In this document: in pieces, positions 5,840 to 28,951 of the stretch
Layout of the letters: every line of letters starts with the position of its first letter
How positions within the stretch are numbered: position 1 is the stretch's first letter
From: a phage
Strand: one strand, 5' to 3'
DNA: 64,000 nt
Sequence record: PX880099.1
The notes under the pieces: model-generated
Database searches by the model: none
The model's input: the letters and a program-made list of their open reading frames with translations, nothing else
What the model was told of the DNA's origin: nothing
Position numbers and translations under genes: made by a program

Positions 5840-6012
5840 CACGCCTCCAAATAGTGTTTACAAATGACAAAACGCCATGTTTGTTTATAATAGTCTCTTT
5901 TTTCAAGAGCCTCTTTGTAAGAGGGTATACGTTGCGACAGAAGCATCCATTCACAATCTGCACCCATTCTTCCATAAAGCGCGTAACGGATGTTACTTTG
6001 TTTATCTCCCAT
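5839..6012 (-). CDS. small hypothetical protein (57 aa)
   Basis: Hand-translated ORF MGDKQSNIRYALYGRMGADCEW..., AAGGAGG SD; below track length cutoff. Confidence 0.4.
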   Translation of the reverse strand: MGDKQSNIRYALYGRMGADCEWMLLSQRIPSYKEALEKRDYYKQTWRFVICKHYLEA

Positions 6013-6055
6013 AAATGCCTCCTTAATCTTGTTTACAAGTATACCCTCTAATTAG

Positions 6056-6253
6056 TTACACTTTTTCCCAAGTACCAAAAGCACAGGAAGGGTAGATTCC
6101 AACTTGAGGGTTTCCGTTATCATCTTTGAAAGTAAAACTGTTGTTGTCTTTATCAAGAACTGTAGAATAAATCTTACCAACAGTAACGCAGTTGGAAGCT
6201 TGACCCAGTTCAGTAAGAGTAAGACATTTCATTTTCTGTTTCTTTGTAGCCAT
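6056..6253 (-). CDS. hypothetical protein
   Basis: 65 aa ORF, SD AAGGAGAC before ATG. Confidence 0.5.
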   Translation of the reverse strand: MATKKQKMKCLTLTELGQASNCVTVGKIYSTVLDKDNNSFTFKDDNGNPQVGIYPSCAFGTWEKV

Positions 6254-6335
6254 TTATAAAGTCTCCTTAGTAAGTGAATCTTTATTCTCCACAAAGAGCT
6301 TTGCACATGTCAAGTAACTCTTTGTGAGATTAATC

Positions 6336-9069: not shown

Positions 9070-9357
9070 ATGTATTATTCACAAAATGAAGTAGCAAACA
9101 TTAAACTGGCAGTTGGCGATCTTATTGTGTCACCTAACTACCATTGGGATAACACAGACTTGGTTGAAGTAGTAACTCATGTTGGGTTTGAGGGTGTTGT
9201 GCTCTACACCCTGGGTGGAGGTGTTGTTGGGGAAATGGAACGTTATACAACGACCAAGAAACTGGTAAGTTCTTATCGTATGTTCTTGCATCAAGGCTCA
9301 GAAGAGTATGCAACCTTCTTGTTGAAATTGGACGCAGATCGGGAGAAGGCACGATGA
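9070..9357 (+). CDS. hypothetical protein
   Basis: 95 aa ORF, SD GAGAGGAG. Confidence 0.5.
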   Translation: MYYSQNEVANIKLAVGDLIVSPNYHWDNTDLVEVVTHVGFEGVVLYTLGGGVVGEMERYTTTKKLVSSYRMFLHQGSEEYATFLLKLDADREKAR

Positions 9358-9710
9358 AAATTGTACACGATGAAATTCAAATAGAAGAAAGTGACCTGAT
9401 GGATTTGGATGCAGCTTTGGGGAAGGTAATCTATGCAGGAATTAAAGCCTTCCGTGAGAAGGCAAACAATAGCACGTTTGTCATGATCCCCACTAAACTG
9501 ATGCGTGTTTTGTATCCAAATAGAAGTGCGCCGTATACAGATGAAGAAGAGGAGACAGGTAGAAGAGAGTGGTTAAATATTTTAGAAAAGATGGAGAATG
9601 CTTTTATTGATAGTGGTAATCCAGAAATCGTGTATACTGAAGATCAAAGGAAGGCACGGTTAGAGGGCCGTCTTTTATTCGCTAGTTATTTTGATAATCT
9701 TTGGAGCTAA
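9354..9710 (+). CDS. hypothetical protein
   Basis: 118 aa ORF, ATGA overlap with upstream stop. Confidence 0.5.
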   Translation: MKIVHDEIQIEESDLMDLDAALGKVIYAGIKAFREKANNSTFVMIPTKLMRVLYPNRSAPYTDEEEETGRREWLNILEKMENAFIDSGNPEIVYTEDQRKARLEGRLLFASYFDNLWS

Positions 9711-14451: not shown

Positions 14452-14990
14452 GAATAACTGATGAATATGTATTCTTCTTTTCACATAAAGATGTGTTTAG
14501 TAATTGGTATATTGCACCCTTTACAGAAACTGAACCAGGTTACAATGAGACTTTCTGTTGTGTTGAGCAATATATGATGTGGCGTAAGGCTTTGCTGTTC
14601 AAGGATCATGCGATTGCAGCAGCTATCCTTGATCACTCAACTATACGTGACAACGAGAGGAAACAAGCATACTACAAACGTATGGGTCGAGCGGTATCTG
14701 GTTTTAATAATGATATGTGGGAAGAGAACCGTGAGCGTATTGTTATGCGAGGCTTATGCTTGAAATATGTACAGAATCCAGATTTGTATGCAGACTTACA
14801 CCTTTACCAATACAAAACGTTTGTTGAAGCAAATCCTTACGATAAGGTTTACGGTATTGGAATGGGAATGTATGAACCAGGGGTGCTAAACCCTGCTACC
14901 TGGAAAGGGCAGAATCTTTTAGGCAAATATCATAATAAACTGATCGAAATACTTTTCCCAGACAAAATACCGCAAAGACGATATTTGTGA
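14448..14990 (+). CDS. NADAR-domain (YbiA/DUF1768-like) protein, candidate ADP-ribose-processing enzyme
   Basis: 180 aa; FFFSHKDVFSNWYIAPF, CVEQYMMWRKALLF, W..NRERIVMRGLCLKY.QNPDL, GIGMG...W.GQNLLGK match the NADAR pattern. Confidence 0.7.
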   Translation: MRITDEYVFFFSHKDVFSNWYIAPFTETEPGYNETFCCVEQYMMWRKALLFKDHAIAAAILDHSTIRDNERKQAYYKRMGRAVSGFNNDMWEENRERIVMRGLCLKYVQNPDLYADLHLYQYKTFVEANPYDKVYGIGMGMYEPGVLNPATWKGQNLLGKYHNKLIEILFPDKIPQRRYL

Positions 14991-15233
14991 TATTTTAACT
15001 TTTTTCATTTTTAGAACAAAGGTGTCACTTTGTAGCACAGAAATAAGGCTCCTACAGCACCGTAGAGAGCCTGTTATTTTGTCCTATACAAACCCTTGTC
15101 TTTTTCAGTTTGCATCACTAGGATTCGATCTGAGTGGGTTCCTGAAGGTTTACCAATAAGATTAAAGGTTATATCAAATTCCCACTATCTTTTATCTCAA
15201 AAATCCCTCAAATTATTTAAACTTTTTAAGAAT

Positions 15234-15418
15234 TTACAAAAGTGAAAGTTGAAAACCAAAATTTAAAGTTTAGGAAAATTATCTTAAAATGTTAGATACA
15301 AAACAAAACTCAAAAGTCAAGGAAAATTTTAAAAATTTTGCGCGCCCACAGTATTTAAAGTTTTTTTGCTTTTACAAAAATGAAAGTACAAAAGCAAAAT
15401 TTAAAGTTTACAAAAATT
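15234..15418. repeat. pair of about 48-bp direct repeats (15234-15280 and 15371-15418) in an AT-rich non-coding region
   Basis: TTTACAAAAGTGAAAGTTGAAAACCAAAATTTAAAGTTTAGGAAAATT vs TTTACAAAAATGAAAGTACAAAAGCAAAATTTAAAGTTTACAAAAATT. Confidence 0.6.
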
Positions 15419-15433
15419 TTTATGCAGGTGAAA

Positions 15434-15548
15434 ATGAGAAGAGTTCTCATATGGAAATGCAAATGATAATGATTCGCATTTAAGTTTATAAATGAGATTG
15501 ATTCTTATTTAATAAGGTAAATGACAATCATTCTCATTTAGAGAATGA
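15434..15548. promoter_or_regulatory. cluster of palindromic hairpin or operator-like sites built on ATGAGAA/TTCTCAT and AATGAnAAT..ATTCTCAT (Fur-box-like)
   Basis: ATGAGAA-GAG-TTCTCAT (15434-15450), AAATGC-N15-GCATTT (15455-15481), TCATTCTC-ATTTA-GAGAATGA (15528-15548). Confidence 0.45.
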
Positions 15549-15761
15549 CGCGCAGGGGCGGTGTTTGTCTCGCGCTCCCGTGTCCACTCGCCATGTAATA
15601 AGAATAACAGATCCAGCCAGGAAAGCAAGCGATTATTTTATCTTTACATTTCTTTACAAATATATAGCACCCAGCCTACCGGCGATCAACCTTCCAACCA
15701 GTGCCCCCTGGTATGTTAGCCCCGCCTTTACGCCGTGGGGTGGCGCTTCCTCTTCTGTATG
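15541..15761 (-). ncRNA. candidate structured non-coding transcript from a GC-rich island
   Basis: Strong minus-strand promoter at 15768-15796, then about 220 nt of GC-rich sequence with several short stems and no ORF of 60 aa or more on that strand. Confidence 0.25.
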
Positions 15762-15767
15762 TAAAAC

Positions 15768-15796
15768 AGTATAAGCCCGATCCCTGGGCTTGTCAA
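15768..15796 (-). promoter_or_regulatory. sigma70-type promoter on minus strand (TTGACA-17-TATACT)
   Basis: Reverse complement reads TTGACAAGCCCAGGGATCGGGCTTATACT. Confidence 0.5.
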
Positions 15797-15798
15797 GA

Positions 15799-16065
15799 TT
15801 ATTTTTTGTTTTCTTGCCAGGATAGGACACCTAACCAAAAATACATATCGCCCCGCGCCCCTGGTGGTATCTTGCTTTCCCCGCCGCCACTGCAAGCCCA
15901 TAGATAACCATTTGCGAACGTATCAAAATGATCTATCTCTTCCACCTTATGATCGCCCAGGTTGAGAACGGTTTCAACCTTTAAGCCCGTTGCGCTTGCT
16001 ACCTGGTGCACCGTGCCGCCTTGCCAGCCCAATGAGTGCATAAGGTGTAATGTAGTATTTGTCAT
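15799..16065 (-). CDS. hypothetical protein (GC-rich, compositionally atypical)
   Basis: 88 aa ORF with upstream minus-strand TTGCTA-17-TATTAT promoter and a GCGCC..GGCGC hairpin in the leader. Confidence 0.35.
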   Translation of the reverse strand: MTNTTLHLMHSLGWQGGTVHQVASATGLKVETVLNLGDHKVEEIDHFDTFANGYLWACSGGGESKIPPGARGDMYFWLGVLSWQENKK

Positions 16066-16230: not shown

Positions 16231-16251
16231 TCACTATTTGGAGTTAAGATC

Positions 16252-16449
16252 ATGGCAACATTGCACATTGTGGCGAAAGCTGGACAAATCAACGTAGTGG
16301 TAAACGGTTTTACTGAGTTCAGTCACCCCCAGGATGATCATGAAACGGTTTTATCTTTCATTGATTCCCTGTTAGAAATGGGAGTCATTACAGAAGACCA
16401 GCACGCTACAAAATGCAAGCGCGTTAATCAAATTGTAGGAATAGAATAA
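16252..16449 (+). CDS. small early protein
   Basis: 65 aa; start at ATG (MATLHIV); track extension is read-through of the hairpin. Confidence 0.5.
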   Translation: MATLHIVAKAGQINVVVNGFTEFSHPQDDHETVLSFIDSLLEMGVITEDQHATKCKRVNQIVGIE

Positions 16450-26616: not shown

Positions 26617-27036
26617 ATGAACATTAAATCAAATAATCCAGCTTACTCCTTCGATAACGCTTTTTGTCACGGTAGCGCCGCCAAAGGCTTCGAAATCGAT
26701 GGTAAATTGGTTATCGTGAACGTTGACGGGGAAGAGGTTGCAGTGTATCCGGTAAACGATGTTAAAAGCCGTTTACAATGCCGCATGGATGTTACCGCAT
26801 ATCAGCTTGATCCGGTCCGTGTAGTTGCCTTGGTGTTAGAGGAAGAGATCAAAGCAATGCATCACAGTAATAAGTTTATTGGTGACGCGCAGGATAATAT
26901 GAACGTTTGCCGCCATAAAGTTAATGAAGCATTGAAAGAATGCGGTTTTAAGGATCTGATGATTAAACGTGATGAAAAATTCCGCTTTCGTAATGACCTG
27001 GCAAACCGGATCTACTCAATCTATGAAGCGTTATAA
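26617..27036 (+). CDS. hypothetical protein
   Basis: 139 aa ORF, SD AAAGGACAA. Confidence 0.55.
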   Translation: MNIKSNNPAYSFDNAFCHGSAAKGFEIDGKLVIVNVDGEEVAVYPVNDVKSRLQCRMDVTAYQLDPVRVVALVLEEEIKAMHHSNKFIGDAQDNMNVCRHKVNEALKECGFKDLMIKRDEKFRFRNDLANRIYSIYEAL

Positions 27037-27051
27037 TTGACAACAAAACAA

Positions 27052-27077
27052 GGGCGCACCAAGCGCCCTTTCTTTTT
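27052..27077 (+). terminator. rho-independent terminator
   Basis: GGGCGC-ACCAA-GCGCCC followed by TTTCTTTTT; closes the PeSL gene cluster. Confidence 0.65.
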
Positions 27078-27283
27078 GCCCGAACAATATTGATAGCTTT
27101 CGCCTATGAAAAACCGACACAGAACAAAACTGAATAAATCGCGGTATCGAGCTAATCAACCAGCAAACGAATAACCATACCTCCCAGGGTTACAGGCTGT
27201 TAGAGAGCCATTTAGAGCGGTTAAAATCGATCAACAACCAACAACAAACCATCAAAAACACCCTTTTACCTCCTTTCTAGTGC

Positions 27284-27302
27284 AATGATAACCATTATCA
27301 TC
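27284..27302. promoter_or_regulatory. near-consensus Fur-box-like site
   Basis: AATGATAACCATTATCATC, 15 of 16 positions match the core of GATAATGATAATCATTATC. Confidence 0.4.
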
Positions 27303-28037
27303 TACCCATGATTATCTATGCAATATAAGCGCATAATTATAATGTTGATAATAGTTCGCAACAACTAACCAACAAACAACATAAAACAATAAGCAAACTA
27401 ATCATAATCAAAGGAATAATAGCAAGATGATTGATAACGACAAACAATCAAACCATGATGAATACTAAGCAAGATAACGATAACACGACAAAACAACCAA
27501 CTAACGAACAATAACAAACGAAACCATTAAAATAATAACTATTAGCAAAATAGTGCATGAATGAAATCATTACAAAACGAATCATTCATAGAGTCATCAT
27601 TAGCACGCTATGCCGGACACATAGCGAGCTAATAATAAGCCAACTACACCCCAACAATCATAACCATCGGTGATGGTTATTTCTTGTTACTGCGTAGCTT
27701 GCAATAATTGCAAGCGTAATGACGCTTACACTTATTGCGCTGGCTTATTATTAGCATTATATGTAATTACCAAGATCATAACATTAGCGCAATAACAATA
27801 ATCATTGTGGTAATTACGTAAGGAAACAATTAGCATGGCAATAATTATGGGGGCAATGGGAGGATGATTATCATCATTCCGATACATTGCACACTATGCA
27901 CATAATAGAATAAAAAGCAATAATTTTGGGGGCGAAATGTTACCGCCACAGGCGGGAATGTTGAGCAAGTTCTCTTAAACGTAAATAAAATCAGAATAAT
28001 CTTGATTTATTTTAGTTTTTATGTTAATAAACGTTTA

Positions 28038-28056
28038 AATAATAATCATTCTCATA
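28038..28056. promoter_or_regulatory. AATGAnAAT..ATTCTCAT motif copy
   Basis: AATAATAATCATTCTCATA. Confidence 0.35.
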
Positions 28057-28215
28057 TAAATAATAGTCTGCTTGTCATGAGCGGGATTAGTTGACAATGT
28101 TCCGTCATATGATGAGGTTGCCAAGCCATTGATAAATAAGTGTTTGTGTGATTTATAATCAGGTGGCCCACCTTGTCGCTATGTTGGCATGAGCCTTGCA
28201 TAAGTCATTGAATAC

Positions 28216-28236
28216 GAATGATAATTATTCTCATTC
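28216..28236. promoter_or_regulatory. palindromic AATGAnAAT..ATTCTCAT motif copy
   Basis: GAATGA-TAATTATTC-TCATTC. Confidence 0.4.
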
Positions 28237-28576
28237 GCATGATATTTGGGAATTGTCGCTGCGTGGACCTGACGGCCCGAAAATTCGCGTTAAGCACTTC
28301 TTACGTATGCACCATGATTTTTGCCATATCATATTGATTCTATTAGATATTCTTGCCATGATTGCCATGAAACAGGGTGTCCCGAAATAATCTCTCCCCG
28401 TAGATATTTTGGGTTACTTTTTATACAAGAGTGGGGTGTCAAAAATAATCGGTATATATGGGATAATTGATAGGAATCCCCTATGATAATTCGATTGTAA
28501 TTCCCTAAGATTGATCGTATGATGTTGGTGATTAATGATTGCCATGAAAGATGGCTAACGATGAGAGGAGATTATC

Positions 28577-28951
28577 ATGCAAGAGAGTAAAAATGTTCCG
28601 TTGAGCAGTGCAACATTGCTTCGCTTCTATAAAGCATGGATTGCCAACTATCCTGCAATGAATCGCACAACGAGTGGCTTATGTGGTTGTCTGGTAGATT
28701 ATGTAGATGATTTTGTTGGTGAGACAACTAGAGAAGAAGATAGAAGATGGCGTGATCATTTGTTGGACCGTTTGAAATATGAAATGAGGAAACAATTTAC
28801 ATGTGCAGGGTTGGACTACAATCTTCCGTTCAATGCAGATTGCATGGATTACCTTTCAGAGTGTATAAACTTGGCGTGTCATACCAACACGTTACGTCTT
28901 CAATGGGTGAAAGACAGAATTGAAGATGCAAATAATGCTTGCATTGAATAA
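28577..28951 (+). CDS. paralog family A member 1
   Basis: FYKAWI...GLCGCL...NLPF...RLQWVKDRI shared with four other genes. Confidence 0.6.
   Translation: MQESKNVPLSSATLLRFYKAWIANYPAMNRTTSGLCGCLVDYVDDFVGETTREEDRRWRDHLLDRLKYEMRKQFTCAGLDYNLPFNADCMDYLSECINLACHTNTLRLQWVKDRIEDANNACIE

Follow-up and report, generated by a model that had tools for sequence, protein, structure and literature searches.

Positions 27080–28576 of the stretch analyzed here (64,000 nucleotides of phage sequence record PX880099.1, hereafter the window) form a tract between a gene that ends at 27036 and a gene that begins at 28577. By its matches, the window can be assigned to Phapecoctavirus, the phAPEC8-like myophages of Escherichia coli (Stephanstirmvirinae, genomes of ~150 kb); the region 26600–29000 matches 167 phage records at 93 to 98% identity, and nearly all of these are Phapecoctavirus. 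We propose that the tract is probably a control region for the chromosome ends (the concatemer junction) in a phage whose unit genomes are packaged with a short direct repeat at their termini. Its features are as follows, with a slash in the boundary words marking the edge of the repeat.

27045–27075, plus strand: intrinsic terminator of the last right-end gene (26617–27036), with a stem at 27050–27070 of 8 pairs (6 GC), followed by TTTCTTTTT.
27100–27600, plus strand: G-poor, A/C-rich spacer of the right genome end, extreme in composition for the window, ~65% identity across genera.
27282–27304, unstranded: Fur-like box 1 (GCAATGATAACCATTATCATCTA), 1 mismatch to the 7-1-7 motif, 23.8 bits.
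27541–27834, unstranded: ATTAGC iterons, with copies at 27541, 27599, 27628 (minus strand), 27750, 27783, and 27829.
27606–27626, unstranded: hairpin H1, a 7-bp stem with the conserved loop CCGGACA; 91/91 cells Watson-Crick, 3/7 pairs changed on both sides.
27628–27755, unstranded: nested multi-arm palindrome, with a 15-bp closing helix P1 (27628–42 with 27741–55) enclosing three arms.
27960–27967, plus strand: left boundary word GTTG/AGCA (end of the unique right part, then first repeat base); TGTTGAGC, invariant in all lineages.
27964–28292, unstranded: direct terminal repeat (328/329 bp), one copy in the window, placed by the record ends of relatives and a published length.
28036–28058, unstranded: Fur-like box 2, ~75 bp inside the left repeat edge, 25.5 bits.
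28215–28237, unstranded: Fur-like box 3, ~70 bp before the right repeat edge, 24.3 bits.
28289–28296, plus strand: right boundary word GTT(A)/AGCA; TCGCGTTAAGCA, invariant, with five records ending at 28291.
28293–28576, plus strand: leader of the left end, ahead of the first early gene (28577), with blocks conserved across genera.

An earlier note on this DNA, made from the letters alone, had described about 1.1 kb without an open reading frame (ORF) of 60 amino acids or more on either strand. The ORF scan bore this out for 27037–28195, and the sole ORF of that size in the tract has 64 amino acids and a TTG start (28196–28390). Every relative has a gap of 1.5 to 2 kb between the phAPEC8_0017 homologue and the next small early gene, which has either been left unannotated or been filled with tiny ORFs by automatic pipelines. 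It is very improbable that the tract holds an array of unannotated small protein genes. Some depositors did annotate 6 to 12 tiny ORFs in the gap; against this, each of the 15 ORFs of at least 30 amino acids in the tract gains frameshifts and stops in other genera, none of them (0/15) stays open across genera, and the cross-genus alignment has many indels whose lengths are not multiples of three. A conserved small-ORF array, which the earlier note had set against its own proposals, was ruled out on this ground. Searches of the tract for tRNA, tmRNA, and known RNA families found none. The flanking proteins were considered as terminase or DNA-binding candidates and dropped; all neighbors are of unknown function.

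Evidence for a genome end comes from the records of related phages. A search with the tract alone returned many independently deposited records that begin or end within it. The terminal repeat of Schickermooser has been published as 328 bp (Korf et al., PMC6563267), and in its record an exact 329-bp repeat, which maps to 27964–28292 of the window, is found at either end. For BI-EHEC, WPEC4, and Mt1B1_P17 (reversed), the first base of the record is 27964 and the last is 28291; like that of Schickermooser, these records contain the repeat at both ends (four records in all). The Ro121lw record starts at 27964 and ends at 27963. In an alignment of six genomes from four lineages, both repeat edges fall in invariant words, TGTTG/AGC and TCGCGTT/AAGCA, which share the core GTTR/AGCA. 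The distance from word to word is 328 bp here and 341 to 343 bp in the sister genus Justusliebigvirus, in which PhageTerm analysis of BME3 gave a repeat of 342 bp (PMC12210895). The BME3 record ends exactly with ...ATCGCGTT and AGCCTAC..., and TTTGTTG directly precedes AGCCTAC at the inner boundary copy near the other record end. We used these record ends in place of the annotated "DTR-L" feature (PP239276, 146957–147298) because that feature lies 73 nt off the true repeat and next to an odd join, which leads into the middle of hairpin H1; the feature also contains Ns, suggesting an assembly or annotation artifact at that end of the record, whose own end positions are correct. Five Phapecoctavirus records and the PhageTerm-based BME3 record thus break at the same invariant words, as expected of fixed, sequence-defined ends.

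Since the record ends of relatives and the published repeats map to the same invariant words within the tract, the tract can be read as the concatemer junction as it appears in a collapsed assembly, namely, the right end, one copy of the repeat, and the left end. A packaging region or genome termini had been among the functions suggested in the earlier note, and that suggestion has held up, with the terminal repeat sitting inside the tract; the note had included neither the repeat nor the nested palindrome, which is the most constrained element of the tract. A third copy of the boundary word, GTTGAGCA, is present at 28600–28607, 24 bp into the first early gene and 308 bp to the right of the right edge of the repeat.

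The palindrome lies in the best-conserved block of the tract (27590–27770), which is at least 99% identical in 48 records, compared with 92 to 98% for the tract as a whole. The arms enclosed by P1 are P2/P2b with hairpin H2 (27660–80), the invariant hairpin H3 (27697–27715), and P4 (27716–20 with 27734–38), whose loop, CGCTTACA, is conserved. Across 13 sequences from about five lineages, pairing is kept in 95.1% of cells, versus 24 to 47% in controls with slid partners, and 16 of the 52 pairs have changed on both sides, a level reached in 0 of 500 shuffles. Compensatory changes include GCTATG paired with CATAGC becoming CCTACG paired with CGTAGG and, in P1, AAGCC with GGCTT becoming AACGC with GCGTT, ACCGC with GCGGT, or AACAC with GTGTT. 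In arall an A-T pair is swapped to T-A, and H2 of KP2025 has another sequence with its pairing kept. The right arm permits two mutually exclusive pairings, each with some covariation.

The covariation supports the fold, and strict Watson-Crick pairing on both strands fits pairing at the DNA level equally well or better. Pair types comprised 637 G-C or A-T cells, versus 3 G-U and 8 A-C, and because the complementarity is so strictly Watson-Crick, both strands can fold. Relative to shuffles, the fold z scores were −6.3 (plus strand) and −7.4 (minus strand) as RNA and −9.1 (plus strand) and −11.1 (minus strand) as single-stranded DNA. The palindrome had no match in Rfam, and our search for transcription units was a consensus scan for promoters and terminators only. 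Given the strand symmetry, the lack of a transcription unit in that scan, and the lack of an Rfam match, a DNA-level signal is the better reading of the palindrome, either as a cruciform or as hairpins on either single strand.

The palindrome is accompanied by a repeated word, ATTAGC, present in 6 copies within ~300 nt compared with ~0.23 expected from its window-wide density. Copies flank the palindrome in every genus (2 to 9 per genome, with up to 9 in Klebsiella relatives), and the P1 arms themselves form an inverted ATTAGC pair. Such iteron-like recurrence points to a bound protein. Iterons of variable number, a nested palindrome that is stable as single-stranded DNA on both strands, and a strand-asymmetric stretch that puts dense GTT on the minus strand would also suit a replication origin, where an initiator or primosome would be recruited by iterons and by a palindrome able to extrude next to AT-rich DNA that melts easily. 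Secondary origins lie near the ends of T7 DNA, and an origin would be compatible with a packaging role. We nevertheless regard an origin as unlikely, as no DnaA box (TTWTNCACA) occurs between 20394 and 33981 and thus none in the tract, no identifiable initiator gene adjoins it, and the location of the element at the exact genome end is more simply explained by packaging.

As a putative packaging signal, the arrangement has several partial counterparts. One is the concatemer junction of T7, with a 160-bp repeat, flanking noncoding repeats, and pac sequences. The tract resembles that junction in its short exact direct repeat with fixed ends, in the single repeat copy per junction that is to be duplicated, in its noncoding flanks, in early genes that run inward from the left end, and in a hairpin-forming sequence adjoining the repeat. 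It differs in belonging to a 150-kb myovirus, in lacking both a junction pause site for a phage RNA polymerase and any sequence similarity to T7, and in carrying a multi-arm nested palindrome 209 bp from the repeat and Fur-type boxes inside the repeat. In lambda, cosB is made up of repeats that bind terminase next to the site of cutting. The tract likewise has short words repeated in either orientation to one side of the cut site; there is no sequence relation, and terminase binding to ATTAGC is inferred only. Parvovirus and adeno-associated virus termini have small palindromes nested in a larger one, and their A-B-B'-C-C'-A' arrangement is similar to ours in that a long closing helix surrounds short hairpins near a genome end. 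However, the phage genome is double stranded, its element lies ~540 bp inside the end rather than at the terminus, and there is no sign here of rolling-hairpin replication. In T7, duplication of the terminal repeat involves a hairpin intermediate, and the hairpin-forming sequence beside the repeat has been implicated in processing (PMC4281155).

The second group of elements in the tract resembles operators of the iron regulator Fur. The earlier note had pointed to a near-consensus Fur box at 27284–27302 (15 of 16 core positions) and to further Fur-like palindromes at 28038–28056 and 28216–28236; all three sites were confirmed, and their positions are conserved across four lineages. Boxes 1, 2, and 3 have 1, 2, and 1 mismatches to the 19-bp consensus/7-1-7 motif and match the core at 15, 14, and 14 of 16 positions. 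At up to 2 mismatches, TGATAATNATTATCA has 7 sites in the window (0.78 expected), and both sites with 1 mismatch lie within the tract. The site of box 1 is occupied in 6/6 genomes of the cross-genus alignment, and the right-end stretch contains one box in every lineage (two in Justusliebigvirus). Inside the repeat, the box pair is present in every lineage but Tr1, which is without the second box (box 3), and the offset of box 2 from the left repeat boundary is kept in all genera (+75 to +103). The sequence of box 3, AATGATAATTATTCTCATT, is shared without change by the window, phiWec186, VEcB, inny, and arall.

A weight matrix made from the phage boxes only was scanned over the 26-kb ent-fep cluster of E. 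coli K-12. Its top four matches fell at fepB-entC (23.1 and 15.4 bits), fepD-entS (16.0 bits), and fepA-fes (14.8 bits), regions that make up 2.8% of the sequence scanned and that are established as Fur-regulated divergent promoters; other intergenic regions scored 5.4 bits or less. Because the matrix ranks these promoters at the top, the tract boxes are Fur boxes at the level of sequence. A second matrix, made from the boxes of relatives only, found exactly six strong boxes in the window (at least 23.8 bits), and shuffles gave 0.3 matches of at least 15 bits. Three of the six are in the tract, and three are in another noncoding region at 15460–15540. The phage boxes are like the E. coli Fur operators (entC, fepA-fes, fepD-entS) in having 0 to 2 mismatches to TGATAAT-N-ATTATCA and up to 15 of 16 matches to the classical core. 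They are unlike them in not lying on a recognizable strong promoter, in a right half that is mostly ATTCTCA, and in their location at the chromosome ends of a virulent phage, the likeness being one of sequence alone. Promoter matches at the boxes reach 8 to 9 of 12 positions, largely from the TATCAT and GATAAT of the box itself, and only weak matches to a conserved sigma-70 promoter were found in the repeat and leader.

Alternatively, the likeness to Fur boxes may be one of appearance only, with the boxes serving a regulator encoded by the phage itself, for instance an early repressor or the small subunit of terminase. The conserved ATTCTCA variant of the right half-site would fit such a protein, as would the restriction of the boxes to two noncoding regions of the window and the presence in a weak copy (15431–15453) of ATGAGAAGAGTTCTCAT, whose center is unlike that of Fur boxes. 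We consider this possible but not likely: the box matrix is specific in its choice of Fur operators in E. coli, AATGATAATCATTATCA is present in perfect form in VEcB and inny, and the same boxes occur in unrelated T5-like siphoviruses, which is easier to explain by a common host protein. A host protein is thus favored over a phage-encoded one because unrelated phages of the same hosts share the boxes.

The link to T5 comes from the other box-containing region of the window.

15431–15540, unstranded: second box cluster, with boxes at 15431 (weak), 15460, 15489 (minus strand), and 15518; 24 to 29 bits, with a core that matches T5-like terminal repeats.

This cluster is 84 to 86% identical over 55 nt to T5-like phages, inside an annotated left terminal repeat. 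In T5 (AY587007), the matrix picks the annotated palindromes E, G, and I (9471–9632) at 26 to 32 bits, just left of the 7.9% nick, where palE, palG, and palI sit beside DnaA boxes; the T5-like saus47N record has four sites of the Fur-like box family at 9150–9670. The T5 region has been described as a maze, conserved and untranslated, in which nested repeats, DnaA boxes, and palindromes without a known function occur together with the injection-stop signal (Davison, bioRxiv 10.1101/866236). Fur is not mentioned in that comparative study, and a literature search found no paper linking Fur with this region of T5. The tract is similar to T5 "Repeat Region 3"/iss (same source) in being a conserved untranslated region of 1.2 to 1.7 kb at a terminal repeat, with nested inverted repeats and a cluster of palE/G/I-type palindromes of the same sequence family as the tract boxes. 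It differs in having no counterpart of the eight paired DnaA boxes of T5, in a repeat of 329 bp rather than 10 kb, and in boxes that lie within 75 bp of the physical ends rather than at the inner repeat boundary.

The gene-free region around the second cluster (14990–15560) contains three strong boxes and one weak Fur-like box, two repeat units of ~50 nt (TTTACAAAA.TGAAAGT...AAATTTAAAGTTTA, at 15233–15290 and 15371–15420), and promoter-like sites in fourfold excess (10 versus 2.4 expected). The cluster is 12.8 kb from the right genome end, i.e., at ~8.5% of a 151-kb genome; the boundary of first-step transfer in T5 is at 7.9%. The adjacent segment, 15560–15800, is found at ~70 to 86% identity in ~290 phage records, mostly unannotated, including Justusliebigvirus, phiTE, Cronobacter CR8, Klebsiella, Proteus, and Salmonella phages. 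It has a near-consensus minus-strand promoter, TTGACA-17-TATACT (15796–15768), and a minus-strand terminator-like hairpin at 15549–15527 is built from one Fur-like box. The segment had no Rfam match, and its fold z score was only −2.05; it might harbor a small gene or give rise to a ~235-nt small RNA.

Given the boxes that the two phage groups share, we suggest tentatively, and with considerable doubt, that host Fur or another Fur-family protein may be recruited to chromosome ends in at least two unrelated lineages of virulent enterobacterial phages, Stephanstirmvirinae and T5-like phages. The T5 palindromes would then be Fur sites, and iron status or Fur occupancy might gate DNA entry, early transcription, or packaging, or phage DNA might titrate Fur. 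A more specific idea, that box clusters with a host protein on them halt the entering genome for a time or divide its entry into stages, a checkpoint similar to the T5 injection stop, appears improbable to us. The boxes are the same as those of T5 that adjoin the nick and shear point at 7.9% (palE, palG, and palI), the second cluster has a comparable position in the genome, and both regions are long, conserved, and untranslated; however, the tract lacks the paired DnaA boxes of T5, and its repeat is far shorter than the 10 kb of T5.

The base composition of the tract gave mixed results. An A/C strand bias over 1.5 kb had been reported by the earlier note; the bias is real and is the extreme of the window (maximum A+C of 0.703 over 300 nt, ~4.9 standard deviations above the mean), but it is confined to ~27100–27670 (A 44%, C 23%, G 12.6%, T 20%) and absent from 27670–28576. 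The G-poverty of the top strand is kept across genera (G 9 to 13%, C>G), and an excess of A well over T is limited to this genus group. Of the words said to recur, CAA (z 2.4) and GATAA (z 3.1) are enriched over dinucleotide shuffles of the tract, as is AAC (z 5.2), whereas ACA is not (z −1.3). No ARN run exceeds 5 triplets, an unremarkable length that ranks 134 of 1270 windows. The idea that an RNA from this region serves as an Hfq ligand through ARN repeats or as a MazF target through ACA is thus not supported, ARN runs and ACA both being within the expectation from composition. Tandem units with a period of ~128 nt, suggested by repeat family D2, were also ruled out, as there is no offset peak and TRF finds tiny arrays only. 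With regard to rut sites, the C/G ratio of the G-poor stretch is ~1.3 to 1.9 in all lineages; YC dimers are not enriched there, and the excess of C over G is below the window maximum.

A long noncoding RNA would be an A/C-rich transcript of ~500 nt, unstructured up to a folded 3' domain formed by the nested element, with a role as a regulator or as a sponge for proteins. The G-poor stretch would indeed be unstructured and its neighbor folds strongly, hairpins at 27050–70 and 27660–80 frame the stretch, and a single U-G pair in P4 is permitted on the plus strand only. Yet the consensus scan found no convincing conserved promoter, and the hairpin at 27660–80 is an inner arm of the palindrome whose T-run is not conserved. 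With 3 G-U against 8 A-C cells there is no strand preference, and the minus strand folds better still. Moreover, ARN and ACA are not enriched, and the tract matches no Rfam family at the gathering threshold; matches below it, to eukaryotic and archaeal small nucleolar RNA and microRNA families and to one phage Mu small RNA (Mu-gpT-DE), were all far under the cutoffs. A long A/C-rich RNA, as put forward in the earlier note, therefore has neither a convincing promoter and terminator frame nor an RNA family match, and we consider it quite unlikely.

The two sides of the tract are bounded by more conventional elements. The terminator at 27045–27075 is annotated as such in phAPEC8 and Schickermooser and is conserved in all lineages. 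The leader contains TTGCCATGA twice (28353–70), GGGTGTC..AAATAATC twice (28375 and 28434), and a 24-nt unit twice (28462–28511) that is related to 27089–27117; sigma-70-like matches in the leader (28293–28576) were weak only. In phAPEC8, UP17, and Schickermooser an extra gene of 345 bp, phAPEC8_0018 (phAPEC8 5981–6325), separates the first early gene from the leader. The window (junction at 28576–28577) and DE16 are without this gene, indicating a variable insertion site directly after the leader. The "PHIRE promoters" of phAPEC8 (746–765 and 2161–2180) are copies of a GC-rich hairpin, GTAGGGCGGCAATGGTGCCGCC, located just after sigma-70-like promoters; a copy in inverted orientation is present in the window at ~16240–16260, and these copies look more like an RNA or DNA hairpin than a promoter. 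Three records labeled as Campylobacter, Pseudomonas, and Acinetobacter phages (MG065650, OR584014, and OP562383) carry the tract at 81 to 95% identity to E. coli Phapecoctavirus. Of the three, OR584014 diverges most and groups with phiWec186, and the host labels look doubtful (contaminating coliphages?).

Several observations weigh against a chromosome-end control region as we describe it. The window has one copy of the repeat, and the ends of this genome are inferred through 96 to 98% identity to relatives. Some of the five records that share the boundary may have been reoriented after an earlier record, although the PhageTerm-based BME3 result argues otherwise. The boundary 8-mer GTTRAGCA occurs 10 times in the window (4.6 expected); it was thus rejected as a unique cleavage signal and is not sufficient alone for recognition. 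The covariation of the palindrome comes from about five lineages of one subfamily, and part of it could be mimicked by concerted evolution of inverted repeats. Scans of IMG/VR and JGI metagenomes added no distant homologues, the 15 metagenome matches being due to chance and without the flanking blocks. No strong promoter overlaps the boxes, unlike in typical Fur operators, and their right half-site is usually ATTCTCA, not ATTATCA. Finally, identity to phiWec186 drops from 91 to 96% (upstream gene, A/C stretch, and palindrome) to 77 to 83% (spacer, repeat, and leader) in a step at ~27760, a pattern suggestive of recombination, with a mosaic boundary immediately to the right of the palindrome. 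Because of this step, we rejected identity to phiWec186 in the A/C stretch as proof of selection; its conservation may come from the mosaic boundary.

An order of events can be proposed for the chromosome-end control region that we favor. To the left of the repeat, the right genome end consists of the terminator, the G-poor spacer, one Fur-type box, and the nested palindrome with its ATTAGC iterons; the repeat contains two Fur-type boxes at conserved distances from its edges, and the early-gene leader follows to the right. Replication would yield concatemers with one repeat copy per junction, as in the window, and terminase would cut at the two GTTR/AGCA words, with duplication of the repeat following the T7 pattern. 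On the right-end side, the palindrome and iterons may be cis-acting DNA signals for recognition or end processing during packaging, in the manner of T7 pac and its hairpin intermediate or of lambda cosB. A host protein of the Fur family, most likely Fur itself, may be recruited by the boxes at each chromosome end and in the region at 15.5 kb. In the weakest step of this model, the G-poor untranslated stretch, if transcribed, could be a Rho substrate that shields the junction from read-through from the upstream gene block.

In sum, as a terminal control region of a phage the tract is nothing out of the ordinary, and the repeat that it contains has already been published. Its cis-acting elements are undescribed, and the finding that two phage families have boxes of the Fur type at their chromosome ends is a lead that reaches past this phage. 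Genome-end regions govern phage packaging, DNA entry, and where assemblies should be opened, and for this widely used therapeutic group of E. coli and Klebsiella phages the repeat length alone had been reported. A base-level map of cut-site words, a covariation-supported palindrome, iterons, and operator-like boxes now offers direct targets for engineering and packaging studies. The Fur-box link, which would tie the chromosome ends of virulent phages to a host iron regulator, has the wider reach, as it makes Fur a concrete and testable candidate host factor at the long-unexplained palindromes near the T5 injection-stop signal. If this proves true, iron status or Fur occupancy would gate a step linked to the genome ends, or replicating phage DNA would titrate Fur.

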